IMG/VR virus record: IMGVR_UViG_3300001041_000010
DNA: 55,365 bases
Strand: one strand, 5' to 3'
From: an uncultured virus (IMG/VR IMGVR_UViG_3300001041_000010)
Lineage: Duplodnaviria; Heunggongvirae; Uroviricota; Caudoviricetes
Positions 2,865 through 51,701 of the stretch are shown here, in pieces (positions within the stretch are counted from its first letter, which is position 1; each line of letters starts with the position of its first letter). The translations under genes and the position numbers were made by a program. The notes under the pieces were generated by a model. The model made no database searches. It saw only the letters and a program-made list of their open reading frames with translations, and had not been told where the DNA came from.

Positions 2865-3125
2865 TTAATCTGGTATTACGATCTCGGCAATTTTACTTTT
2901 GCCCATTTCGTAAAGTTGTTCTTCACTAAGTAAAACAGTCTTAGTTTGATCAGCAAACCATTGTAGGATTTCATCAGAACCAAGTTCTATTGGCTCTAAG
3001 GCAGGTCCCTTATCAGCAGTAAACGTAAGTAAAGTAGATGCAGGATAAATACTACCATTCTTATTGGGATAACTTCCACTTAGTGGTGGTCCATGACCTT
3101 CAGAGTTTGATAATTTATATCCCAT
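2865..3125 (-). CDS. hypothetical protein with shared C-terminal tag (LYEMGKSKIAEIVIPD)
   Basis: ORF track; start moved to ATG GGA TAT after AAAGG. Confidence 0.7.
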   Translation of the reverse strand: MGYKLSNSEGHGPPLSGSYPNKNGSIYPASTLLTFTADKGPALEPIELGSDEILQWFADQTKTVLLSEEQLYEMGKSKIAEIVIPD

Positions 3126-3513
3126 TGCATGCCGCCTTTCTTTTAGCCAGATAGGTTCGCAGGTCCATAGTTCCCTTATCATTATTACACCGCTTACAAC
3201 AACAGGCATAATTATCTAAGGAATCGCGCCCTCGTCCAGAATAGTCTGCTCGGCAAACAATATGATCGACTGTAACTTCTGGATCATTAGGGTCTAAGCG
3301 AGCATGACAAATATAACAAGTATAATTATCACGAATCAATGCCTCTTGTCTCATACGCTTCTTGTCTTCTTTAGTAACGAGAAGTCTGATAGCATTGCTA
3401 TTAATCCACTCAGCACCTTGACGGCGAACTAATTGATTAGCGATCATCTTCCGACAGGGTTTCAGAAGTTTGCCTGTGGGATGATACACATCAATTATTG
3501 CTGCTTCTTTCAT
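3115..3513 (-). CDS. HNH endonuclease with N-terminal PLMP/RRXRR-like segment (IshB-like)
   Basis: RDNYTCYIC..TVDHIV..NYACCCKRCNNDKG is an HNH motif; N-terminal VYHPTGKLLKPCRKMIANQLVRRQGA resembles the PLMP domain. Confidence 0.8.
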   Translation of the reverse strand: MKEAAIIDVYHPTGKLLKPCRKMIANQLVRRQGAEWINSNAIRLLVTKEDKKRMRQEALIRDNYTCYICHARLDPNDPEVTVDHIVCRADYSGRGRDSLDNYACCCKRCNNDKGTMDLRTYLAKRKAACNGI

Positions 3514-3515
3514 GT

Positions 3516-3719
3516 TTAGTCCTCCGGAATAGAGATGTTAAGAATACGTTGTCTACCCTTCTCATGAAGTAATTCTTGATCAGTATAACTTATAGTTTCA
3601 TAACTACATCCTGGGCAAATTAGCCATAGATCACCATAATGATCGATTGTATAATGATAATAAACAACATACCTCCATTGACAATTAGGGCACTCAACTT
3701 CTACATTAAATCGCTTCAC
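3516..3719 (-). CDS. small zinc-ribbon protein with shared C-terminal tag
   Basis: CPNC..CPGC; ends LHEKGRQRILNISIPED; probable GTG start, uncertain. Confidence 0.7.
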   Translation of the reverse strand: MKRFNVEVECPNCQWRYVVYYHYTIDHYGDLWLICPGCSYETISYTDQELLHEKGRQRILNISIPED

Positions 3720-4377
3720 CAATCTCAGCTTCTTTAGACTTTGACTTGTCATAGTATTTACCGGCAAGCTTAATGGCAATTACTTCTTGTTCGGCGTCAA
3801 ACTTAGCAATCATTTCTGCTGTAGGATACGTATCAATTAATTCATTACGACGCCAAACATAAGAATCCTTACGAGGCTTTGATAAGTCAACAAAACTATA
3901 TGAAACGTCACGATCTTGAAGACCTAACTCTTTATTGAGTTGTAGTTCTAAGAATTGTTCTTCAGTGATGCGAGTAACAACATCGTAACCATGGTGAGAC
4001 ACGCGATAAGCAGTAACTAATACTACCATAGGAATGACATGGATGTCTTCAACATATCGTTGACAACTAACAAACATAATATCTTTGTAAAGTACAACAC
4101 TTTCCTGACCACCGACACCGTCCCATCCTTTAAGGGATTTGCTCGGATCAATGTCTCGACTTGTGTTTCGTTCTATTATGCTTGTTGGTCTTGATATGTC
4201 CGTGGGAAGTCTTGGTCTTACTAAATCCTTTTTTAAGGACTTCCTAATCTCCTTTTCTTTGGCGAGCGCTTCTTCAGGCGTTACTTGAGCCATACCGTGT
4301 TTCTTAGCAACAACATTAGCAGCATCGATAATCTCAAGAACTGATGTGCTCGGTACCTGCGGAGTCTTCTTGCTCAT
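3706..4377 (-). CDS. hypothetical protein
   Basis: 223-aa ORF with GGAGG RBS, packed between neighbours. Confidence 0.75.
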   Translation of the reverse strand: MSKKTPQVPSTSVLEIIDAANVVAKKHGMAQVTPEEALAKEKEIRKSLKKDLVRPRLPTDISRPTSIIERNTSRDIDPSKSLKGWDGVGGQESVVLYKDIMFVSCQRYVEDIHVIPMVVLVTAYRVSHHGYDVVTRITEEQFLELQLNKELGLQDRDVSYSFVDLSKPRKDSYVWRRNELIDTYPTAEMIAKFDAEQEVIAIKLAGKYYDKSKSKEAEIGEAI

Positions 4378-4914: not shown

Positions 4915-5100
4915 TTAATCCTCCTTAATAATATCTTCAAGTAATTTTCTACCACGGTCATGTAAGAAATCTTCATAAGCCTTACTTACAAGCCATCTAG
5001 TATTACAATGGAAGCACCTGATATTACCTCCACGTTTTAATGATCCCATAGATACATAGTGTAATAAATTACACTCAGGACAATGCGACGTAAACATCAT
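4915..5100 (-). CDS. small zinc-ribbon protein with shared C-terminal tag
   Basis: MMFTSHCPEC..RCFHCNTRW..LHDRGRKLLEDII; GAAGGAG RBS. Confidence 0.75.
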   Translation of the reverse strand: MMFTSHCPECNLLHYVSMGSLKRGGNIRCFHCNTRWLVSKAYEDFLHDRGRKLLEDIIKED

Positions 5101-5314
5101 CTTCTCCTTCAAATACTGGTATTTTAATTTCTTGAATATATTTTCGACCTTGAATGTATTGAGATCGTTCAGATTGATCTGTATAATAAATACGCTCAGT
5201 CCAACAATGATCGCATGAAGAACAATGTAATTTAAGATTTGTAAAGGCAACAAGAACAACATTAAAATGACATCGATGATTACACTCAGGACAACGAATT
5301 TTAAATAGGTTCAC
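5075..5314 (-). CDS. small zinc-ribbon protein with shared tag
   Basis: CPEC..CSSCDHCW..QGRKYIQEIKIP. Confidence 0.75.
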   Translation of the reverse strand: MNLFKIRCPECNHRCHFNVVLVAFTNLKLHCSSCDHCWTERIYYTDQSERSQYIQGRKYIQEIKIPVFEGEDDVYVALS

Positions 5315-5326
5315 TCACCAAACCTC

Positions 5327-5548
5327 CTAGTCTGGTATTACAATATCGTCAAGCATTCGGCGACCACGTTCATATAAATCTCGCTTCTCGGTTTCAGAAC
5401 CAGGTTCTGCTTTACCGATTAATTCTTTCTCGATCCATGTATAAGCGCATGCGGGACACTTTAGAGTAGCACCACGATACCAATTATGTTTTGATTCAAA
5501 TCTAACTCCTGCCTTACACACTGGACATAAGGTTTTGAATGTATACAC
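5327..5548 (-). CDS. small zinc-ribbon protein with shared C-terminal tag
   Basis: CPVC..CPACAYTW..LYERGRRMLDDIVIPD. Confidence 0.8.
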   Translation of the reverse strand: MYTFKTLCPVCKAGVRFESKHNWYRGATLKCPACAYTWIEKELIGKAEPGSETEKRDLYERGRRMLDDIVIPD

Positions 5549-5560
5549 TAATCAGACCTC

Positions 5561-5776
5561 CTAGTCTGGTATAACAATATCGTCGAAACACTTTTTACCT
5601 CGCTCATACAATGCCTTATCTGTTTGATTATCAGGAAGTCCTTCAATATTTTTCTCAGTCCAGAAATGACCACAGTTAGTACATCCTATAGATAGATCAT
5701 GATACACTAAAACATGAGTTGTGAAGGTATGAGTGTCTCCACATCTTGGGCAGGTAATTTTATAGTTGTTTGCCAA
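5561..5776 (-). CDS. small zinc-ribbon protein with shared C-terminal tag
   Basis: CPRC..CTNCGHFW..LYERGKKCFDDIVIPD. Confidence 0.8.
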   Translation of the reverse strand: MANNYKITCPRCGDTHTFTTHVLVYHDLSIGCTNCGHFWTEKNIEGLPDNQTDKALYERGKKCFDDIVIPD

Positions 5777-12257: not shown

Positions 12258-14060
12258 TTACACCTGACTAAAGATTGAACTCGCTACTTCGTCTTCGACA
12301 TCAGCTAATTTAGAAACCGTAACGATATCATCACTAAAGAGTTTTAATGTACGGTCACTTGCTCCATAGCCACCAGAACCGATCAAGACAGATTTCACTC
12401 TGAACTCTTTCTCTTTTTTGATCTTTAAAAACTCTTCAAGAAAACCTTTTTCTAAGTGAGAATCACCATCTGTGATAAAGACAATGTCCGCTAATTTAAA
12501 CTTATTCATCTTCAAGATCTTTAAGGCTTCTTTTAATGGTGGTTCAAAACTAGTGCCGCCGCCTGGAAATGTCTCAGCGATATCTAAGACAATATTAGGT
12601 TTTAAGCTGTCCTTAGGAACAATATAGACCCACTTAGGATCTACATAACTTTCAAATAGAATACAAGCGTAATCACGTCGTTGTTTTTGTGCGATTTCAA
12701 GCAATGCTAATGCTACCGCTTTAGACCATTTTTCCGCTTGACCACTCATTGAGCCTGAGACATCAACACAACAGATAATCGGACCCTTGCCCTTTTTCTG
12801 AGTATTTTCAAGCTCGTATTGAAGAAGTTCCTTTTGATTATATTTGCGATAGAAATCACGTTTAACAACTGGACCCGCTGCAAGTCTAAGTTTTTCACTA
12901 GGTAATATAGATTCAAGTTTATTACCTGTCGTGACGGACTTAATATTCGTAGCGCCATCCTTGGTTTTCTTCTTTTGATCATCCATAGCAAGCTCACGGA
13001 AACGACCAATCAGTTTCGAGAACTCTTTAAGTTTTGACGATCCACGGATGCGTTCGAGTGCGGCTTTCTTCTCTTCAATGGGTATGCGCTGCGCTATATC
13101 ACCCTTTTCCATCCCCCATGCATTTAAGAAATCGCGAACCTCATCAATGTCTTTATCAGCCTTATCGGCGGCCTTAGCCATGACTTGTTGAAGTTCTGTT
13201 GCGGCACCATTGTCAAGTTGTTCATCAATTTGCTGTTCCTTGGCATCGATGTCATCTTGAATCTCTTGCATTTGTTGTTGTAATTTAGCCATAGCTTCGG
13301 CTTCTTCATCGGTAACGCCTTGACCGTTACTACCACCACCAGCACCAGGGTTACCACCTTGACCACCGGGATCTCCTTGACCATTGCCGGATTGCTTCTT
13401 TTTCATATCGTCAAGTTTCTTTTGAAGATCTTGTTTCTTCTTTTCTTGTTCGATAAGTCCGTTAATGGCCTTTAAAATATCCGGATCCATTGGCGGCTTG
13501 CTTTGGCCTCCTCCGCCTCCAGAACCAGAACCTCCTCCGCTACCGCCAGGTTCTCCGTCTTCACCTTCGCCGCCTTCTCCTTCACTTTCTTCTCGCTTAC
13601 GATTATAATCTTCTTTAATAGCGATGACACGGCGAGAAGCTTCTTGTTGCATAACTTCAGTGGCGATTGCTGAACCTAGGATATCAAGTCTGGTATTTTG
13701 TCTTAAATTAGCATACTCAGGCGTGTCCATAAGCTCTGTTATAAGCTTGTGGTTTAACTTATGACTGGCTTTCATTTCGCCTTGTTCGGCGACTTTAGGC
13801 GTATACTTAAACAACGCTCCGAATAAGTCTTGACTTAGTGTATCGAAAGTTTTTAAGTGTTCATGACCAGCTCGTAAGTTATCTGCCATGGCAGGAGATT
13901 GACTGATAAGATCTTGATATATATCAATATCAGCCCAATCTACATTAACGGCATGATCTGTCTTGACAATGGGTTTGAATTCCTGAGCGGTTTCACTAAC
14001 TCCGAAGATAGAAGCAACTGACGGCCCTGCGACCGTCGGTTCTGCTATTTTTATAGTCAA
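12258..14060 (-). CDS. vWA-domain protein (ViaA/CoxE-like partner of a MoxR ATPase)
   Basis: MIDAS motif CVDVSGSM..GGTSF..DIVFITDG; Gly-rich linker. Confidence 0.9.
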   Translation of the reverse strand: MTIKIAEPTVAGPSVASIFGVSETAQEFKPIVKTDHAVNVDWADIDIYQDLISQSPAMADNLRAGHEHLKTFDTLSQDLFGALFKYTPKVAEQGEMKASHKLNHKLITELMDTPEYANLRQNTRLDILGSAIATEVMQQEASRRVIAIKEDYNRKREESEGEGGEGEDGEPGGSGGGSGSGGGGGQSKPPMDPDILKAINGLIEQEKKKQDLQKKLDDMKKKQSGNGQGDPGGQGGNPGAGGGSNGQGVTDEEAEAMAKLQQQMQEIQDDIDAKEQQIDEQLDNGAATELQQVMAKAADKADKDIDEVRDFLNAWGMEKGDIAQRIPIEEKKAALERIRGSSKLKEFSKLIGRFRELAMDDQKKKTKDGATNIKSVTTGNKLESILPSEKLRLAAGPVVKRDFYRKYNQKELLQYELENTQKKGKGPIICCVDVSGSMSGQAEKWSKAVALALLEIAQKQRRDYACILFESYVDPKWVYIVPKDSLKPNIVLDIAETFPGGGTSFEPPLKEALKILKMNKFKLADIVFITDGDSHLEKGFLEEFLKIKKEKEFRVKSVLIGSGGYGASDRTLKLFSDDIVTVSKLADVEDEVASSIFSQV

Positions 14061-14106
14061 GTTACATCATCTCCTCGTCTTCATATTGTTCTAACCAATC
14101 ATTATC

Positions 14107-15402
14107 TCAGAACGGCATAGCCTCTTCGTCATCGGTTGTGGTTCTTTTACGAGCGGCTGCTTTGGGAATTTGTAAAACTTCCTGAATCATCTCTTCATTC
14201 ATTTTGATGATATCGTCACGTTTCTTCTCTAGATTCGTCACGTCACGTCCGGCAGTTTGAGCATCTTTAATGACTCGTTCAATCTTCTTGACGATTTGTT
14301 CATACTTAACACGAGCCTCTACAGCCGCTCCGGCTTTCTCTGTCTTATTATCGATACGTTCCGTACGGTTCTTGATTTCTATAGCCGTATCATAAAGCTC
14401 TTTAACTTTGTCATCATAAGGATTGATTAGCTTCATAACATAGCTTTCAATGATCTTAATGTGTTCTTCTTTTTCCCACAAGACATGAATCAGAGACACA
14501 AAATCATCAAAATCAACACTTGTTCGGCCATTGATTAAGGCGTTCCCCTGAAGAACCTTAAAGCAGGCAACATACCGTCTATCAGAGAAGTAAATGCCTT
14601 CTTTGTTAAGTTCACGACCAAGCTTCTCGAAGGTCTTATAGATATCGTCCGGAATAAGAACTTCTTCCAGTATTTCGTGAATGGCTTCGAGTTCTTCGAG
14701 TGTCACTAAAGTGTGTTTAAAATGAGTCTTAATGGCGGGATTACGGCGCTCAACCGATTGTTTAGCCATCTTAACTTTGTTTGCCGGTTCTTTAACGTAC
14801 TGAGCATTATGCCTAAACATGAGTCTATCGTAAAGCGCTGCTAAGCTTTCATCTTCTGGTGTTTCATTCGAGGCACAAAACATAGAGTATAGCGGAACAT
14901 CATTAGGCACACCGTCATTATAAAAGATACGTTCATTGATGATCGGAAGTAAGATGTTCAGAGTTGGTTCATTCGATTTCCAGATTTCATCCAAGAACAC
15001 GATATGAGCCTCAGGCAAGCGGCCTTTAGATTTACGTTCGAACTTGTCCTTCTCCATACCTTTTAAACTATAAGGACCCAGTATATCCGCTGGATCTGAC
15101 GTTTTGTTTAACAACCATTCAAAGTAATTTGCTTGATCGATATGTCCCGTGAAAGCACGAGTTAATTCAGATTTTGCTGTTCCCGGAGGCCCCATGATAA
15201 ACAGATGATTCTTAGTAACGACCGCTCGGATTATATCTTGTACTATTTCAATTCTTTCCACGAATTGATCGTTGAGTTCATCAGCAATTGCCTTCAAATT
15301 AGCGATACCCTGTGCAGCCAAAATCTTTACGTCAACTGTTTGTTTCGGTGCGCTTACGACCAATACATCCTCATCAGCACTGTCCATTAATGCCATTGCC
15401 AT
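14107..15402 (-). CDS. MoxR/RavA-family AAA+ ATPase
   Basis: GPPGTAKS, ILGPYSL, VFLDEIWK, ASNE, ALYDRL, SDRR. Confidence 0.92.
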   Translation of the reverse strand: MAMALMDSADEDVLVVSAPKQTVDVKILAAQGIANLKAIADELNDQFVERIEIVQDIIRAVVTKNHLFIMGPPGTAKSELTRAFTGHIDQANYFEWLLNKTSDPADILGPYSLKGMEKDKFERKSKGRLPEAHIVFLDEIWKSNEPTLNILLPIINERIFYNDGVPNDVPLYSMFCASNETPEDESLAALYDRLMFRHNAQYVKEPANKVKMAKQSVERRNPAIKTHFKHTLVTLEELEAIHEILEEVLIPDDIYKTFEKLGRELNKEGIYFSDRRYVACFKVLQGNALINGRTSVDFDDFVSLIHVLWEKEEHIKIIESYVMKLINPYDDKVKELYDTAIEIKNRTERIDNKTEKAGAAVEARVKYEQIVKKIERVIKDAQTAGRDVTNLEKKRDDIIKMNEEMIQEVLQIPKAAARKRTTTDDEEAMPF

Positions 15403-15585
15403 AATTAACAATTCCTCCTTAAATTCTTCTTCTTAGTATTACAAATTGTAACGCGAATTATACTCTCCTTTCTCCTATTATATCACATTTTGTTACATAA
15501 ATTAAGTGTTTCAATCCACACATCTAACGAGATGTGACAAAGAGTGAAATCCTCCACCTCCCGAGAGGGAGAGGTGGAGGATGAA

Positions 15586-18976: not shown

Positions 18977-19303
18977 TTATTTTAATGTCCAGTGAGCTGC
19001 CCTTGCAAGCTCAAGCTCGATGAGGCCACGTTCTAAGGCCTCATCAACAAGAGCTTTAAAGATTGGTTTTTGAGCAAGCCAATACTGATAATCATCAATG
19101 ATTAAATCTTCATTATCTTCATACTCTATTAATTCTTCAGCACGATTTGCTAAGTAACAAATTGTATTCATTAGATGTTCATCTTCAAAATCCTTAGAGT
19201 AAAGTTCTTTACCATCTTCTGTTGTCCAGACGGCTTCATTGAGATACCACTTGACTGTTAAGGGTATTCGACGTTTCATCCGGATCACCGGCTTCGGCCA
19301 TGT
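18977..19303 (-). CDS. hypothetical protein
   Basis: WTTEDG..HLMNTI motif; start uncertain. Confidence 0.55.
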   Translation of the reverse strand, partial: TWPKPVIRMKRRIPLTVKWYLNEAVWTTEDGKELYSKDFEDEHLMNTICYLANRAEELIEYEDNEDLIIDDYQYWLAQKPIFKALVDEALERGLIELELARAAHWTLK

Positions 19304-20054
19304 CTCTAGTATCCTTCCAAAGGCCTGAAGCCCATACACTCGACGTCGCCAACATAAAAGAATAAAGTTCTTCATCCGTCGGTTCTTCACCTATGATTGA
19401 GACATAACTTCGTTCTTGGTCATCGACATTAAAGAGAAGATTAACTAAAATACTGTAGGCTAATTGATCGGCAAGAAGTTCCTTCATGTCGATTTTCTTT
19501 ATGCCCAGGAGATCCATAAGAACCTTATCATACTCACGAGACTTAGCCCATCGATCCTCAAGATCGGCTTCTTTAATCCAATCACTTACCGTATGTTTAA
19601 CGCCTGCGTTATAAGCAGCACATTGTTCTGGTACTAAAATATAACGCTCCGGTAAGGCTTCGTTTGTTTCTTGGTTACGACCACTAACGCGTCCAATTGG
19701 ATAACTACGACAAACGGTGGGTCGCTCCTTGTAGACTGAACACTTACCGCCTTTAAGAAAACTGCAAGCAGATCGTGTGCGTCCTGGAATTTTAATTCTT
19801 GGTTCAACCATATTTAAAAGTACCATGGGCCACTTACTTCTGCCGCCCGGTTGAATATGAATATAGTTCATGATTTCTTGAGTTGGAATCTTAAGCTCTC
19901 TATGAAGCTTGATAACGTCCCATGGATTAAGTAATACATCGATATCATGGCAGCAGGTACCGCATTGATGACAGTTAAAATCAAATTCATCAGTAAGCTC
20001 TAAAAATGGAATACTTCCATCATCAATTCCGTTAGCTATGGCTTGAGTTGACAT
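19236..20054 (-). CDS. YkgJ/CxxCxxCC cysteine-cluster protein
   Basis: FNCHQCGTCC..CSFL..CSVYKERPTVCRSYP. Confidence 0.88.
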   Translation of the reverse strand: MSTQAIANGIDDGSIPFLELTDEFDFNCHQCGTCCHDIDVLLNPWDVIKLHRELKIPTQEIMNYIHIQPGGRSKWPMVLLNMVEPRIKIPGRTRSACSFLKGGKCSVYKERPTVCRSYPIGRVSGRNQETNEALPERYILVPEQCAAYNAGVKHTVSDWIKEADLEDRWAKSREYDKVLMDLLGIKKIDMKELLADQLAYSILVNLLFNVDDQERSYVSIIGEEPTDEELYSFMLATSSVWASGLWKDTRDMAEAGDPDETSNTLNSQVVSQ

Positions 20055-20638: not shown

Positions 20639-21583
20639 TTACTTCGCCGGTGTAGCGGACGCGCCACCCAGTAATAGATTCGCACCAGCCGGTGTATAGA
20701 TTACTTCAACTTTATCATTAAATTTCTCAATAGATTTTAGTTGAAGCATCTTATCTGTTAAGCTGGCACTAATGGTTTCATTCGCTTTGGCTTCAGCTTC
20801 GGCAGCTACTTGTTTAGCTTGAGCATTAATCTTGGCATTATCAAGATTCATTTGGGCTTCGATTAAAGTTTTAGCTGCAGCCGATGTCGCTTGCTTTGTA
20901 GCATTTTCAGCGGCGATCTTGGCTTCAAAGCTCCCCTTAACGGAATCCGGCAATGTAATCCGTCTAAAGTTAAAACCTTCGATAACAAGGCCAACTTCAG
21001 CAAGTTCGGTTCTCATACGGGTTAATACTTTACCGGCAATTTCATCGCGTTTATCGTTCATGTCTAAAATAGAATAGGTACCGGTCGTGGCCATTAAATC
21101 ACTATTAAGTGTGTTACGAAGAACGTTGTGAGCAATCGTTTCGATACTAGCTCCACGATACTTCTTATAGAGTTTTTCAACATCACCAACATGATAAGCA
21201 ACAGAGACGTCAACATTGACATTAGGACCTTCTTTGCTCGGCGTATCAAGGGAGTCATTGCTTGGCGATCCTTCGTCTGCTCCGGCTGTGAGGATCAAAT
21301 ACTCTGTAGAAACGGGATACTCAACAAATTGACTTGTGAAAGGATTGACAAACTTGTAACCAAGTGTATCCTTAACGGTAATTTCACCGTTAATCTTGTT
21401 TTGAATAATACCAACGTAACCAGGTTTAACCCGATCAAAGGATACAAAAAGGAACCCTGCGATAAACATAAATATAATGACTAGGGCAGCACCACCAATC
21501 ATTGTATTACGTGCTTTAATCATGTCTCTGCGACGACGCTCACTTGGGCTCATCTGTTCGTTTTCGAAGTCTTTGTAACTCAT
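20639..21583 (-). CDS. SPFH/band-7/prohibitin membrane protein
   Basis: N-terminal TM helix, VKPGYVGI, VNVDVSVAYHV, Ala/Glu-rich coiled coil. Confidence 0.9.
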   Translation of the reverse strand: MSYKDFENEQMSPSERRRRDMIKARNTMIGGAALVIIFMFIAGFLFVSFDRVKPGYVGIIQNKINGEITVKDTLGYKFVNPFTSQFVEYPVSTEYLILTAGADEGSPSNDSLDTPSKEGPNVNVDVSVAYHVGDVEKLYKKYRGASIETIAHNVLRNTLNSDLMATTGTYSILDMNDKRDEIAGKVLTRMRTELAEVGLVIEGFNFRRITLPDSVKGSFEAKIAAENATKQATSAAAKTLIEAQMNLDNAKINAQAKQVAAEAEAKANETISASLTDKMLQLKSIEKFNDKVEVIYTPAGANLLLGGASATPAK

Positions 21584-23870: not shown

Positions 23871-23919
23871 TGTTTATCACCTCATTACTATTGTATCACA
23901 ATTTGTAACAAATTATACT

Positions 23920-24348
23920 CTAATCAGGGATCTTAATATCTAAGATTGAGTATCGACCGCGTTCATAGAGTTCTGTCATTGGCATTTCTTCTTCAAGCAA
24001 TAAACCTAGACGTTCGCGTTCGTCAATTGTTAAACCAAATCGGATAATGTCATCTCTCGTATTCGCAACCTGCGAATCACCAGATTCTTGTCAGCCCCAG
24101 CCGGTATAATCGCATCCAGCTCGAATAGCACCATAACGACCGTCTTTGAGTTTAACGACGATGACCCAATTGGCACCGTCGTTTTCACCATCAGCTTTAG
24201 CAATAACTTCTACAACATCTTCAATTGTAAATGGCGAACAATCAACCGTAAGAACACCTGGAATAAATGCTGTAGGTTTTGATTCTGTACCATCGGCATA
24301 AGCAAAGACATAGGGCCAATTATAGTCATCATCAAGTTCTGGTAACAT
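23920..24348 (-). CDS. probable selenoprotein (in-frame UGA at 24091-24093 in GCDYTGWG-U-Q)
   Basis: Frame stays open for 56 sense codons after the UGA and ends in the shared C-terminal tag LYERGRYSILDIKIPD; SECIS-like hairpin 10 nt downstream of the UGA. Confidence 0.75.
24059..24080 (-). promoter_or_regulatory. bacterial SECIS-like hairpin
   Basis: GUGAUUCGCA-GGU-UGCGAAUAC: bulged stem with GGU apical loop, 10 nt after the UGA. Confidence 0.65.
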
Positions 24349-24368
24349 TTAGTTTGGCCTCCTTGTCT

Positions 24369-24746
24369 TTACTCGGGAATTTGAATATCAGCAATCAAGT
24401 CGCGACCTCGTTGTTCCTCTTCGCTAATAACATTTTCGTCCATGTGCATGATCGTCATAGCGATCGACTGAATCAGTCTAGAAATAGTAATAAAGTCATG
24501 GGCTGGCTTTGTTCTTGGCTCTGCATTGAGAACATCAACTATTTTCTCATACTTTTCTTGAATACAATCTTGATACTTTAGAGTTTGATTTACATCTTCT
24601 TTAGTATTGATCATTTCATGAAACAAAGCCGATGTAAAGTCTGCAAAAGCTAAAGCAAGTACTGCATAATCTAATCCAATACCGGTATTTGCCATAGCTT
24701 CAGAAAGCTTATTAACATTAGCTTGTCGTTCTTCCTGGGTTAACAT
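24369..24746 (-). CDS. helical protein with shared C-terminal tag (EQRGRDLIADIQIPE)
   Basis: ORF track, AAAGGTGG RBS. Confidence 0.7.
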   Translation of the reverse strand: MLTQEERQANVNKLSEAMANTGIGLDYAVLALAFADFTSALFHEMINTKEDVNQTLKYQDCIQEKYEKIVDVLNAEPRTKPAHDFITISRLIQSIAMTIMHMDENVISEEEQRGRDLIADIQIPE

Positions 24747-28405: not shown

Positions 28406-28600
28406 CTAATCCGGTATTATAATTTCACGGATTTTATCACGACCTATTTCTTCACGAGATTTCAATCGTGAAGTTAGATACCTACTAGGGATATCAAAAC
28501 AATGCTTGGTTTTATTACATAATTCGCATGATCCATAGCTTACAATGCCATTTGATTGATTGGTATAATTATTTGTTAAACACTGATTGCAAATAAACAT
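28406..28600 (-). CDS. small zinc-binding protein with shared C-terminal tag
   Basis: CNQC..CELC..EEIGRDKIREIIIPD. Confidence 0.7.
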   Translation of the reverse strand: MFICNQCLTNNYTNQSNGIVSYGSCELCNKTKHCFDIPSRYLTSRLKSREEIGRDKIREIIIPD

Positions 28601-28602
28601 AC

Positions 28603-28950
28603 TTATACCTCCGGTATAACAATAGAACGAATTTGAGCGGCCCCTGTTTCTTGTAGAGCATTGTCAATTGATCCATTCTTTCCCCATTCTAAGCCTGCTC
28701 TATATGCTTCATCCGGTGTAGGATTAGTATCACCAAAGATAGGATGAACAACGCCAAACCAATCACGGATACGCTTCGCGTCATCATGGCCATAATAGCC
28801 TGACATATAACCAATATTAGCATAAGCATTAGGATTCATAGTAAGATAAAGTTTCATAAACTCTTGGGCTTCTTCTCGTGTATCACACCGGTCAATACCA
28901 TTGCTCATTAAATCACCATAAGAATTTAGATTATAACCTTTCCATCGCAT
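28603..28950 (-). CDS. phage protein with shared C-terminal tag
   Basis: NIGYMSGYY..HPIFG; ends LQETGAAQIRSIVIPEV. Confidence 0.7.
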   Translation of the reverse strand: MRWKGYNLNSYGDLMSNGIDRCDTREEAQEFMKLYLTMNPNAYANIGYMSGYYGHDDAKRIRDWFGVVHPIFGDTNPTPDEAYRAGLEWGKNGSIDNALQETGAAQIRSIVIPEV

Positions 28951-32220: not shown

Positions 32221-32294
32221 TGGATTCTGTTGCGAGAATCGAACTCGCCCTTCACTGCCTGGTAGCAGGGCGTGCGTCCGTACACCAATAGAAT
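32221..32294 (-). ncRNA. tRNA-like RNA with distorted anticodon arm
   Basis: GCGAG-UUCGAUU-CUCGC T arm, CCA end; CUGC-UACCAG-GCAG in place of a 7-nt loop. Confidence 0.6.
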
Positions 32295-33666: not shown

Positions 33667-33748
33667 TGGGCAGGGCAAAGGGATTCGAACCCCTGATAGC
33701 GATCATAAACTTCCTTCGCTCGTTTTAAACCACTAAACTATACCCCGC
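33667..33748 (-). ncRNA. tRNA-like RNA (G-1:C73, CCA) with 13-nt anticodon loop AGGAAGUUUAUGA
   Basis: AGCGA/UCGCU stem; AGGGG-UUCGAAU-CCCUU T arm. Confidence 0.8.
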
Positions 33749-36154: not shown

Positions 36155-36223
36155 GATGCATTGCTGGACTCGAACCAGCACTCAACGCGTCAACGTCAGC
36201 TCTGCCAATTAAGCTATCTGCAT
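36155..36223 (-). ncRNA. pseudo-tRNA with shortened anticodon arm
   Basis: D arm GCUU-AAUUGGCA-GAGC; T arm GCUGG-UUCGAGU-CCAGC. Confidence 0.6.
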
Positions 36224-38481: not shown

Positions 38482-41400
38482 TTATTCGCTATCTTCAGTA
38501 GTCGTGTTGGTTGATTCGACGTCTACTTTCTTTTTATGAGAACGTTTTTCTTTAACTGGTTCCGGTGCTCCGAACCCTTTCATCATTTGTGACATCATCA
38601 TCATCGGCATCATGGATTCCATGCCTTCGCCCATATCACCACCGCTGAACATTGACATCATCATCATGGGCATCATAGCCGCCATGGGATCAACTGCTCC
38701 GTCAACTGGTGCTGTTCCGCCGAACATATTACCCATTCCGCCGCCCATCATTTGACTTATCATCATCATGGGCATCATTGCTTCCATTGGGTTTTTCTTA
38801 TCTGAACTACCATAACCAGGAGAACCTGGCTTTGGCTTACTACCAAACATATCGCCACCGCTGAACATAGACATCATGATCATGGGCATCATAGCCTGTA
38901 AACTACCGGTATTCGGCGTAGCACCCATCATGTTAAACATTGAAACAACTTTGATAAAGAAGTTCCAACCGAACATGCTGCGGCTTGGGACGATGGTCTC
39001 GATCTTCTCTTCGATGGGGTTAAATACCGAAATGTTTTGACCAACCTTAGAAATGACATAGTAAGGTTTGCCATTAGAGATGATTAAATCACCGGCCACG
39101 ACTGCTTGAGCAGGCATACGGAAGATCATGTTGTTGGCGTCGATTACCATTTCCATAACATCAATACAAGAGCCCTGTTCCGGATCATAGCACCGGTACG
39201 ATCCATTGTCACCTTTGATTGCGATACCCATCATTGAGAGTTTGAACATATCCGTTGTGTCTTTACCAATTGCGCTTCCGAAGATCTTTTCTAAATTCAT
39301 GCCTGCAAATGCCATTGTTTTTTCCTCCCTTAAGTCAGCGACCACTAGGTCTGCTGCTGTTAATGTTGCGCCCCATGGGCTAGTTAATACCGGATCTACT
39401 CCTGTTACTGGTATGGTTAATTTCGCGATATCACGAGATCCAATTTCGAATACTGGACTTACACTTCCGGATTTATCAATTGATACTAGTGGTATTTGAT
39501 GTGGCAAAATAGCCTTTGGAATAGGAACTCCAAACTTCTTAAACTCACCCCAATGTTCTGGGTAAAGAAAGACATTCCAATCACCAACACGGACGTTGAT
39601 TGCGCCATTATCATCGATCATTATAGTCCAATTAGATTTTGATTGATCTTCTGACGGATCATGACTATAAGCCGTTAATTTACGATGACCAGTAACTGAG
39701 TAATGTATTGAGTTAATCTTAAAATCATCTGGCACAACAATCCAACGAAAATCCATGCTTGAAGTATTTGGACAAAGTACTTTAAATTCGGTGCCAAGTG
39801 AAAATACCGACGAGATAGAAAAATCCAATTTAGGTTCTTTCTTAGCCGTTAATGCTTCCATGATTTCGGGCCAATCACTTAAGTCAATATTGAGCTGATA
39901 AGTGGAATTTGTAGTACGAATTACCGTGTGTGATTTAACTTCAAGAAGTTCCGTGAGCAAAATATCATGAACACGCGTTATCGTTGCCTCTTTTCCAGAA
40001 GCATAATGATACTTATTAGTATCAATCTTACTACCTTTAGGTACGGCAAACCAATTGGCATTACTATTGTCAAACTTATGATTATTTAAGATAACCGTAT
40101 CGATTTCAAGATCAGATTTTAAGAACTCGTCGAGCTTTAACTTAGAGGTCATATCTGGCTCTTGCTTCTTAATCGGCATTATGGGTTTAGGACATTTTCC
40201 AGAATAAGTCTCTTGAAGTTTAGGCCACATATCTGGGAAGATATCAATAGTAAAGTTACCAGCCGAAACTCTTAAGTTTCCATTACTTCCAACATAAACA
40301 TGCCAATCAGACTGATCTAGTACAGGTTCATGTTTGATCTCCAGGATACCTAGATCATTGTAATCAAGTTTATCCCAGTCCATATCTGGTGGAATTCCAA
40401 TCCATCCAAAACTACCGGCTCGTACATCCATATCATGTTTAGCCGATAAAACGCGGACTCTAGTTCCGACAGGAAATAAATCAGATAAGGTTTTCCTTGA
40501 TTCAACTTGCGGCAAAATAGCCTTAGGACAAATTCCTGGGTAAGCCGCATTAAGTTTTGGCCAATGTTCGGGAAAGATTCGAATACCATAATTGGCAATA
40601 ACACTCATAGAACCATTTGAATCGATAAGATGATGCCAATCTGATGAGTTATGCATAGCACTTTCATCGAGTTCACGAATACCTAAATCATCATATATCG
40701 ATTTATCCCAGTCCATATCTGGTGGAATTCCAATCCAAGTAGGCATATTATTAATAACCTTAAGATTACTCTTAACCTTAAGAACTTGGATCTTAGTACT
40801 GATTGGCATAAGGTCTAACATGGTCTTAGGTCTCATTTTGTAATTAATAGCGAACGCTTTGTCCCAGTCTTCGATATTAAAAACAAGATTGAAGTTATCC
40901 GTTATGATACGATCTCCATGGATTCCACGAACTGTCGTTGTATTGACGGATGGTAAATACTTATCTTCGATCATCCGATCCTGTTTAATACTTGTATGAG
41001 CAATTAATGGTAAGGCATATTTAACATTGCCTTCCGTATAACCACGTAAAATACCAATTCTAACAGTATCATCAACCTTGATGTACGTATCAGCTTTGGA
41101 TTTAGGTTCAGGTTTGGGCTCTGGTTCGGTCCAATCATCAACATCAAAGTTAGTTCTACCATGTCCATCAAGACGAACTACGAATCGCTCAGATAAATTA
41201 TCCGATATATACTCAACAATTTCATACCGTTCTGATCGAATTTCATATTTCTCTTGAAGTTTTGCTTCTTGCTCGGCAGATATTTCCGATTTGAGTGGTA
41301 TAGAAAAGAAGTTAGTAAAACGTTGATCGAAGATAAACGTCTTTAATTTACCAAGTCTAACTCCTTTTCCAACGGCCAAGTAATCACGAATAGATTGTAA

Positions 41401-42021
41401 TTTAGACTTACTCCAGTCTTCTGGATTGAAATTAATATCTGAGTAGTTATCCGTAGATAATATCGTTCGTTCGACGACTGTCAAGTCTTTGACAAACTTA
41501 ACACTAGAGACTGTGTCATCTTCAATTCGGATTTCATAATTCTCTAAGATTCTTTCTTCTTGGGAACTCGAAGTGGCTGATTTAAGTGGTAAGGCAAACC
41601 AATTAGCATCGTCGATATCGTCATATTGCTCACGATATAATTTCCCAACACGAACAGTATCACCAACTTCAAGGTATTCAGCGAGTGCGCCATCACCTTG
41701 ATCTTCAAGTTCATCTTCTTCCCAGTCTTCTGGATCAAAGTTGACATCATCATAATCATCCATAGTAATCGGTGTACGATCCTGCGGTGTTAGATCCTTG
41801 GTAATATCGTCGTCTACGTATTCAATTTTATAAGTCTCACCTTCGATTTCATACTTGGCCTTGAGCCTACGCTCTTGTTGGGATGTTGTGTTACGATGCA
41901 GTGGTAAAATAAAGGTATCTGCATCACCACCAAACGTGGATTCTCTTAATGTACCAATTCGAACTCTAGTTCCTTCTTCAATTGGATATTCTTCAAATGG
42001 TTGGTAGTTATAATCTTTCAC
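38482..42021 (-). CDS. 1179-aa modular protein with internal domain repeats and a Met-rich C-terminal domain
   Basis: Repeats VRxGxL..FxLPL..TSxxQE and WIGIPPDMDWDK; MMPMMMMS repeats; GAGAGGTGAG RBS, GTG start. Confidence 0.85.
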   Translation of the reverse strand: MKDYNYQPFEEYPIEEGTRVRIGTLRESTFGGDADTFILPLHRNTTSQQERRLKAKYEIEGETYKIEYVDDDITKDLTPQDRTPITMDDYDDVNFDPEDWEEDELEDQGDGALAEYLEVGDTVRVGKLYREQYDDIDDANWFALPLKSATSSSQEERILENYEIRIEDDTVSSVKFVKDLTVVERTILSTDNYSDINFNPEDWSKSKLQSIRDYLAVGKGVRLGKLKTFIFDQRFTNFFSIPLKSEISAEQEAKLQEKYEIRSERYEIVEYISDNLSERFVVRLDGHGRTNFDVDDWTEPEPKPEPKSKADTYIKVDDTVRIGILRGYTEGNVKYALPLIAHTSIKQDRMIEDKYLPSVNTTTVRGIHGDRIITDNFNLVFNIEDWDKAFAINYKMRPKTMLDLMPISTKIQVLKVKSNLKVINNMPTWIGIPPDMDWDKSIYDDLGIRELDESAMHNSSDWHHLIDSNGSMSVIANYGIRIFPEHWPKLNAAYPGICPKAILPQVESRKTLSDLFPVGTRVRVLSAKHDMDVRAGSFGWIGIPPDMDWDKLDYNDLGILEIKHEPVLDQSDWHVYVGSNGNLRVSAGNFTIDIFPDMWPKLQETYSGKCPKPIMPIKKQEPDMTSKLKLDEFLKSDLEIDTVILNNHKFDNSNANWFAVPKGSKIDTNKYHYASGKEATITRVHDILLTELLEVKSHTVIRTTNSTYQLNIDLSDWPEIMEALTAKKEPKLDFSISSVFSLGTEFKVLCPNTSSMDFRWIVVPDDFKINSIHYSVTGHRKLTAYSHDPSEDQSKSNWTIMIDDNGAINVRVGDWNVFLYPEHWGEFKKFGVPIPKAILPHQIPLVSIDKSGSVSPVFEIGSRDIAKLTIPVTGVDPVLTSPWGATLTAADLVVADLREEKTMAFAGMNLEKIFGSAIGKDTTDMFKLSMMGIAIKGDNGSYRCYDPEQGSCIDVMEMVIDANNMIFRMPAQAVVAGDLIISNGKPYYVISKVGQNISVFNPIEEKIETIVPSRSMFGWNFFIKVVSMFNMMGATPNTGSLQAMMPMIMMSMFSGGDMFGSKPKPGSPGYGSSDKKNPMEAMMPMMMISQMMGGGMGNMFGGTAPVDGAVDPMAAMMPMMMMSMFSGGDMGEGMESMMPMMMMSQMMKGFGAPEPVKEKRSHKKKVDVESTNTTTEDSE

Positions 42022-50969: not shown

Positions 50970-51701
50970 TTATAATAATACCTTACGGTATTTGTCTCGT
51001 AATTTGGATTCAAGACCACAGCGATTACAATCACCATACTTCATATCACGAATATGATTAATAATCGTTACGGGATCGTCTGTGATGTGGCCTATAATAA
51101 AGCACTGATCGGCTTCACCGGCATGGATATAACCATTGTAGTCAATCGAAGGATTACAGAACTTTAACAGCTTTCTCTCAAGATAAGCTATAAGCTCAGG
51201 CATGGTTGATACCGCATTACTTCGAACTAAAGACCTAAGATTAAAGCACTTAGGTCCCAATTGATTACCCGTAGGAATGTTATTAACAACGGCACGACCT
51301 AATGGATAAATACTACGGATCTTGTGTTCATAAGTCAGAAGCTTGTGCTTTATAATCGGAATCTTTAGTGGATAGTATTGCGGATCATTGGTTATTTGTA
51401 GGTCAATGCCTAGATTAAGAACCTTAGCAGTTAACTCTGGATCACGTAGAAACATACCATTACTTAAGATAAGTAATCTGGTTGATGGAATCATCTCCTG
51501 GAATGTTTCCATGATGTCAATAAAGTCCGGGTGTTCGGTTGGTTCTCCGCCTGAAACCAGTAAGACGAGCGGAGTACTAATACTCAAGAACTTAACAAGC
51601 TCTTTAAGTGTATCAGCCGTCATATGGTCTTCTTCTGGCCCAGCATTAATAAAACAATGCGAACATCCCATATGACATTGATTTGTGATTCTTACTAACA
51701 C
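50970..51701 (-). CDS. radical SAM protein
   Basis: ITNQCHMGCSHC (CxxxCxxC), SGGEPTEHP, SNG. Confidence 0.9.
   Translation of the reverse strand: MLVRITNQCHMGCSHCFINAGPEEDHMTADTLKELVKFLSISTPLVLLVSGGEPTEHPDFIDIMETFQEMIPSTRLLILSNGMFLRDPELTAKVLNLGIDLQITNDPQYYPLKIPIIKHKLLTYEHKIRSIYPLGRAVVNNIPTGNQLGPKCFNLRSLVRSNAVSTMPELIAYLERKLLKFCNPSIDYNGYIHAGEADQCFIIGHITDDPVTIINHIRDMKYGDCNRCGLESKLRDKYRKVLL

Follow-up and report, generated by a model that had tools for sequence, protein, structure and literature searches.

The locus studied here raises a simple question: does an in-frame UGA codon in a gene of an uncultured virus end a protein of 85 amino acids (AA), or is it read as selenocysteine (Sec) within a longer one? 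The window (the whole stretch of DNA that was analysed, 55,365 nucleotides) comes from a virus fragment of 117 kb that is about 52% complete. The gene lies on its minus strand, at positions 23920–24348, and runs from an ATG at 24348 to a TAG at 23920–23922, with a ribosome-binding site (RBS), AAGGAGG, at 24358–24364, 9 nt 5′ of the ATG. Eighty-five codons ending in AGCDYTGWG precede the TGA (24091–24093, codon 86), where gene callers end the product (truncated entry P0002), and 56 open codons (QESGD...DIKIPD) follow it, for a candidate product of 142 AA including Sec86. A preliminary description of this DNA, in which the strand was not given, had claimed that the frame stays open from the TGA to the TAG and that no good RBS serves an in-frame start past the UGA; we find both statements correct, the starts concerned being TTG 117, ATG 122 and ATG 124. 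The TGA is also unlikely to be a sequencing error, as it is unchanged in the contigs of the four sequencing runs checked, one of them from a second study (depth 5.9) and three possibly the source of the same DNA. The evidence presented below argues that the UGA at codon 86 is very probably read as Sec.

A repeated 24-nt element occurs near the gene. One copy (23889–23912) sits just 3′ of the gene stop and 5′ of a DNA ligase gene, and there are four copies in all (23889–23912, 6373, 15476 and 36045), with 0–4 mismatches. On the minus strand the element reads TTGTTACAAATTGTGATA[C/T]AAT and resembles an extended -10 promoter, and an RBS-like sequence trails two of the four copies; matches in a promoter scan were at chance level.

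Homologues carry cysteine where this gene has UGA

A first protein search gave 49 matches, one of them this gene. Among the 48 others, column 86 is Cys in 28, and the remaining 20 terminate precisely at GWG; the stop codon of the latter is not readable from protein data, and ending at this point is the pattern that gene callers give at an in-frame stop. The family comprises 1402 representatives at 50% identity. In relatives the motif is CDYTGW[G/D]x, with Cys at the position of the UGA, and the corresponding motif of this gene, C79-D-Y-T-G-W-G-U86 (C-x6-U), is encoded at 24091–24114. The preliminary description had proposed to ask whether Cys aligns with the UGA and whether similarity continues past it. 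The first expectation was borne out, since 143 of 147 aligned rows have Cys in column 86, with one Trp and no Gly. Across a set of 195 homologues, 167 have Cys at position 86, about 23 lack the position because the protein ends, and five have another residue there; the non-Cys residues found at this column in the protein sets are one each of Trp, Arg, Tyr, Val and Ala. C79 is present in 194 of these homologues, D80 in 188, G83 in 193 and W84 in 191, and the nearly invariant residues of the family are W11, G54, D57, W61, C79, D80, T82, G83 and W84. A few homologues have Cys in place of D80, among them two of the five with a residue other than Cys at 86. These two, P0119 and P0154, carry the motif GCC, as though the partner residue had changed position.

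At the DNA level, the codon scan covered TGA, TGY, TAA/TAG and codons starting with A, C or G followed by CA. Among exact-motif stretches of IMG/VR, codon 86 is TGY in 91 and TGA in 18, with no TAA or TAG and none of the A-, C- or G-starting codons followed by CA. In metagenomes TGA is found at codon 86 in at least 119 stretches; species genomes gave three TGA matches, one of them by chance, which leaves two genome bins with TGA. The G+C content of the TGA members ranges from 0.31 to 0.71.

Similarity does continue past the UGA, as the tail of this gene is 40% identical to a Cys homologue over 45 residues (E 9e-9). The conserved part (residues 87–118, 23995–24090) has the pattern QxxG..VA..RFGL..R.RL and corresponds to the last strand and two helices of the predicted structure. 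A C-terminal family profile, biased towards the subfamily of this gene, matched 82 of 115 TGA loci and 47 of 81 Cys loci at E<0.01. The length after codon 86 is also similar in the two forms, with medians of 39.5–44 AA for TGA genes and 40.5 AA for Cys genes, and the frame closes within 20 codons at only three of 115 TGA loci; two of these are chance motif matches and the third, L092, is frameshifted. L092, a metagenome locus of the TGA form with a hairpin, has its frameshift one codon past the TGA, which may be decay or an assembly error.

A tree of 168 rows over 81 columns requires 39 Sec/Cys changes, compared with 55 for shuffles. The two forms are intermixed on the best tree, at low branch support; well-supported branches force just three changes, and their direction is not readable.

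A SECIS-like hairpin accompanies the in-frame TGA

The candidate bacterial-type SECIS element lies within the coding sequence at 24055–24084, with its apical GGU loop at 24068–24070, 20 nt 3′ of the UGA; as the preliminary description said, the hairpin GUGAUUCGCA-GGU-UGCGAAUAC starts 10 nt past the UGA. It folds at -12.3 kcal/mol. Taken alone this hairpin is moderately unusual, with a z-score of -3.0 in a folding window of 44 nt (one of 200 shuffles as extreme), and it is not significant in three longer folding windows (z -1.55, -0.51 and 0.09) or against synonymous-codon shuffles (z -1.4, p 0.11). A stem of at least 7 bp at the SECIS position follows 16 of the 4919 TGA triplets of the 117-kb record, six of these 16 have a G in the first two loop positions, and among those six only the TGA of codon 86 is flanked by long open frames on both sides. 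This gene is also the only TGA-ended open reading frame (ORF) in this record to combine a stem with a long open continuation that is non-overlapping. A search with bSECISearch had been suggested at the outset; in our own implementation of the published bSECIS constraints, which is not that program, this gene satisfies them with a GGU loop, 6 bp, a spacing of 20 nt and an energy of -12.7 kcal/mol. Rfam covariance models at the gathering score gave no SECIS match in the window, and just two tRNA matches.

We compared 100 TGA and 79 Cys sequences after dereplication at 85%, having dropped L037 and L105 (chance matches), L092 (frameshifted), L149 (cut) and L078 (identical to the window here). A Watson–Crick stem of at least 4 bp around nt 25–27 is present in 75 of the 100 TGA and eight of the 79 Cys sequences (Fisher p 3e-19, the sequences being related and not independent). 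Where both forms encode Val-Ala under the loop, the stem is found in 44 of 51 TGA compared with three of 25 Cys sequences, and, scored against synonymous shuffles, TGA sequences average a z of -1.91 and Cys sequences one of -0.10. The published bSECIS model (our own implementation, after section 5 of PMC13188914) is satisfied by 95 of 100 TGA and 26 of 79 Cys sequences, and the loop lies 19–21 nt from the codon in 71 of those 95 TGA genes. Forty-one genes also end in TGA: in 33 of these a stem is found after the internal TGA, and in three after the terminal one. Most TGA loci are metagenome contigs without proof of viral origin while all Cys controls are viral; among the viral TGA members alone, the stem is present in 11 of 17 and the model is satisfied in 15 of 17.

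The stem itself varies. Covariation in a fixed register, assessed on 21 TGA sequences, is not above that of shuffles (47.6% paired compared with 45.2%) because the register of the stem shifts between members, although the position of the loop is constant. Pair 21:30 is GC in 14, CG in 13 and AU in four of 34 sequences, a count that is circular in that these sequences were picked for one register.

The C-terminal tag

The last residues of the read-through product, encoded at 23923–23979, form a phage-specific tag, LYERGRxxILDIKIPD. The preliminary description had counted this tag in nine other proteins and had taken it as independent evidence of translation. Eight other copies are clear, in ORFs at 2865–3209, 3516–3779, 4915–5262, 5327–5548, 5561–5776, 24369–24746, 28406–28600 and 28603–28950, all on the minus strand, but the ninth (5075–5314) is weak (E 0.74), and the rest of the 117-kb record holds no further clear copy. 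A profile made from the eight other ORFs of the window, with this gene excluded, finds the read-through tail with E 2.6e-5 among 4442 peptides. The tag is thus real, but as evidence of translation it is weaker than claimed, because ATG122 or ATG124 could in principle yield it; the homologues are stronger evidence than the tag for read-through. It is absent from the family homologues, and among 393 sequences only this protein and the identical L078 match it. In all, nine otherwise unrelated small proteins share this tag of about 18 AA, L[YH]E[RK]G[RK]xx[IL]x[DE]IxIP[DE], which might possibly be a degradation, targeting or docking signal.

Predicted structure, neighbours and family libraries

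AlphaFold2, run with 147 sequences, gave a model with a mean pLDDT of 92.9, in which strands are predicted at residues 45–52, 61–67, 72–81 and 86–95, together with short helices. The turn that joins the last two strands has C79 on one side and U86 on the other. Fold searches of the PDB and BFVD and a wide search gave no significant match, which does not imply a novel fold. The best structural match has a Z of 5.4 (rmsd 3.5, 78 aligned), and a WGR match a Z of 4.9 (rmsd 3.8, 86 aligned), both within background; WGR-domain and cystatin-like folds were compared. Pfam gave no match for this protein and five weak member matches among 147, PHROGs a best E of 0.1 and 0.28 with seven single-member matches among 147, NCBIfam only matches far below cut-off, and the PDB sequence search none. 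A thioredoxin-fold selenoprotein of the CxxU/UxxC kind was considered and rejected, given the position of C-x6-U at a β-hairpin turn and the lack of any Pfam thioredoxin-clan match in the 147 members. Among 1043 ORFs around 132 loci, no neighbour cluster occurs in more than six loci; the largest clusters are general phage replication and recombination genes of related Cys-form phages. Fusions are sporadic (one SEC-C and one GNAT among 28 long homologues). No conserved neighbour or fold match indicates a function.

When a natural Cys homologue was used as the query, the nearest ESM Atlas clusters were 82–92% viral; because of this choice of query, the ESM Atlas results describe the family and not this protein. 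The family thus appears to be largely viral. The nearest named clusters are of DUF7574, viral proteins of unknown function (feature score 0.88–0.90), and the query reaches a TM of 0.63 to a cluster in which 11% is DUF7574. Membership in DUF7574 (PF24459) itself was rejected, as the Pfam model matches none of the 147 members and, in 50 viral records with a family member, gives nothing above cut-off. Kinship with DUF7574 may be followed as a lead to a remote relation.

The probable host and its presumed Sec machinery

A gene for an α/β-type SASP is present in the record outside the window (G000:C1:31212–31340, L261), with 43.2 bits for a cut-off of 22, and the RecJ matches that name an organism are to Clostridia or Bacillota, at about 40% identity. 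Together these point to a spore-forming clostridial anaerobe, and the host is probably a clostridial spore-former. Sec is not used by all Clostridia, but the host of this phage would be one that uses it. No tRNA-Sec was found at the Rfam cut-off in this record or in any of the 18 viral records with the TGA form, so that the machinery of the host is presumably used. Of the two genome bins with a TGA relative, one has selA, selB and selC: this is the bin of L038, where selA, selB and tRNA-Sec (selC) are all above cut-off, and where the TGA copy adjoins an integrase-like ORF and looks prophage-like by sequence reading. In the other, the L036 bin (1.4 Mb), no selA, selB or tRNA-Sec is above cut-off. 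Among 401 genomes of the phylum of the L038 bin, the one real family match is the L038 copy.

The window has other features. Three irregular tRNA-like genes lie at 32221–32293, 33670–33747 and 36155–36223 (minus strand), of which one has 8 nt in its anticodon loop (ACCA) and a CCA end that is encoded, another an enlarged anticodon loop, and the remaining one a short loop; none of the three has a UCA anticodon. Among the accessory genes, a MoxR AAA ATPase beside a vWA protein, together with SPFH/band 7, radical SAM and CxxCxxCC proteins, is encoded at 12258–15411, 20639–21583, 50970–51701 and 19236–20054, and an ORF at 38482–42021 (minus strand) encodes 1179 AA with no Pfam or PHROG match.

Proposed decoding and chemistry of the site

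The reading of the UGA as Sec put forward in the preliminary description is supported by the Cys/TGA pattern, by the hairpin that is specific to the TGA form and by the similarity that continues past the codon. The Cys/TGA pattern, the TGA-linked hairpin, the normal role of TGA as a stop at other places and a single case of co-occurrence with selABC are direct results of computation. The gene appears in these respects as a SECIS-dependent selenoprotein gene would, with a Cys column at the UGA, continuation beyond it, a UGA that is kept, SECIS constraints satisfied and TGA as a stop elsewhere. The interpretation also appears to extend from this one gene to a widespread, mostly viral family that switches between Cys and Sec at a single site.

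In the model that we propose, a complex of host SelB and Sec-tRNA(Sec) would bind the hairpin, with its G-containing loop 20 nt past the UGA, and Sec would be placed at position 86 of a cytoplasmic selenoprotein of 142 AA. The phage would depend on the Sec machinery of its host. Without selenium, or in a host that lacks Sec, an 85-AA fragment would be made, without the last strand and the tag; as termination at the UGA drops both, the amount of full-length protein would vary with host selenium. Sec86 and Cys79 would flank a β-hairpin turn (DYTGW) in a small antiparallel sheet and would form a reactive thiol/selenol site, either a redox pair or a nucleophile, aided by D80 and D57. Sec usually takes the place of reactive rather than structural cysteines, and it is for this reason that we take C79/U86 as a redox or nucleophilic site. 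We lean slightly towards such a chemistry, acting on a host or phage target.

A metal-related role of the same residues is the chief alternative, though a weaker candidate. If position 86 is Sec, then C79, D80 and U86, perhaps with D57, might bind a metal or attack a metal–carbon or metal–sulfur bond. MerB uses a Cys/Asp/Cys set, and the replacement of D80 by Cys described above would fit an exchange of ligands. A MerB-like selenoprotein is listed among the catalogued families (PMC13188914). Against this role, there are just two conserved Cys/Sec residues, the fold searches gave no match to MerB or to any metalloprotein, and a partner exchange fits a disulfide equally well. A chemistry that is neither redox or nucleophilic nor that of a metal site seems improbable.

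Other readings of the UGA

Sequence data do not separate Sec from Cys at a UGA marked by a SECIS, and the same hairpin could serve a host selC*-type tRNA(Cys) with a UCA anticodon, which would decode the UGA as Cys, always or when selenium is scarce. Such selC* tRNAs(Cys), with a GCA or UCA anticodon, were described in anaerobic Firmicutes and δ-proteobacteria, and suppression of UGA with Cys was tested in E. coli (PMC5389517). However, all the selC*-containing genomes reported there had a complete Sec apparatus, so that decoding as Cys would be an added route; the wide G+C range of the TGA members suggests many unrelated hosts; and no tRNA with a UCA anticodon is present in this record. We regard decoding as Cys as very unlikely.

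It is likewise highly improbable that the TGA is a true stop, whether a recurrent nonsense mutation, a sequencing error or the end of a functional 85-AA protein followed by a separate tail. A single change turns TGY into TGA, ATG122 or ATG124 could give rise to the tag, and three TGA loci do close early, although two of them are chance matches and one is frameshifted. A true stop is opposed by the absence of TAA and TAG at codon 86 in the IMG/VR scan, by the conservation of post-TGA residues across about 100 divergent sequences, by the specificity of the hairpin for the TGA form and by the TGA in the contig of the second study. It would moreover delete a strand of the predicted sheet.

Finally, stop-codon reassignment is known in phages, but a genome-wide reassignment of TGA (to Trp, code 4, or Gly, code 25) or a leakage without any signal is hardly credible here, as the column is Cys with a single Trp and no Gly, TGA ends 39 of the 188 ORFs of the record, mostly with 0–14 more codons beyond it, 42 of 94 TGA-form genes have TGA as their own terminal stop, at a length usual for the family, and the hairpin accompanies the internal TGA and not the terminal one; the higher long-ORF coverage under code 4 than under code 11 in most loci is uninformative because removing any stop codon raises coverage.

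Comparison with known selenoproteins

Decoding as Sec, the reading that we retain, makes this family resemble bacterial selenoproteins in having an in-frame UGA at a conserved Cys column and Cys homologues without the hairpin. The hairpin is also of the bacterial kind, lying in the coding region, with a 3-nt loop that begins with G, a stem of at least 6 bp, a distance of 20 nt and an energy below -7.5 kcal/mol. The family differs from these selenoproteins in being phage-encoded, in its C-x6-U, which is outside the listed motifs, and in lacking a thioredoxin fold. A 2026 catalogue (PMC13188914, Table 1) counts 119 families of prokaryotic selenoproteins, known or predicted, most of them predicted, as here, from Sec/Cys pairing and a SECIS; the families of Haft and Tolstoy (2025) were compared through the same table. 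The phage family is not among the 119 families of that table, all of which carry a Pfam, NCBIfam, CDD or PANTHER identifier, and our Pfam and NCBIfam scans set it apart from them. The word "phage" does not occur in the main texts of the catalogue and of the BSepDB paper (PMC13326102), and the main texts of openly available articles that were searched yielded no phage selenoprotein family.

Two precedents come from viruses. The glutathione peroxidases of poxviruses (molluscum contagiosum virus and fowlpox) are established viral selenoproteins (PMC8310308): there, too, a virus exploits the Sec machinery of its host, and in fowlpox the SECIS likewise lies within the coding region. They are, however, captured host enzymes of eukaryotic viruses, whereas the phage family has a bacterial SECIS and no known cellular counterpart, the prophage-like L038 copy being its one real match in the 401 genomes of one phylum that were scanned. 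In Basilisk-like Bacillus phages a tRNA-Sec was predicted (PMC6145125), which likewise ties phages to Sec decoding, but this is a tRNA prediction, with no selenoprotein named alongside it.

In conclusion, our results probably describe a selenoprotein family that arose and persists in bacteriophages, with a C-x6-U active site that would be new and a fold that is uncharacterised, in which Sec and Cys would have been switched repeatedly according to the host, with gain and loss of the SECIS, and in which the UGA may tie the full-length, tagged protein to host selenium. Catalogues of prokaryotic selenoproteins derive from cellular genomes, and annotation cuts genes of this kind short, as in 20 of the 48 non-self matches. 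About 100 divergent Sec members, largely phage-borne, would mean that phages draw on Sec decoding by the host to express genes of their own. The Sec/Cys pair would mark the reactive residue of a large family of unknown function, and the members would form a natural series in which short SECIS variants, alongside matched Cys controls, could be used to study SelB recognition in different hosts. The Sec form might, in addition, mark a phage as one that infects a Sec-using host.
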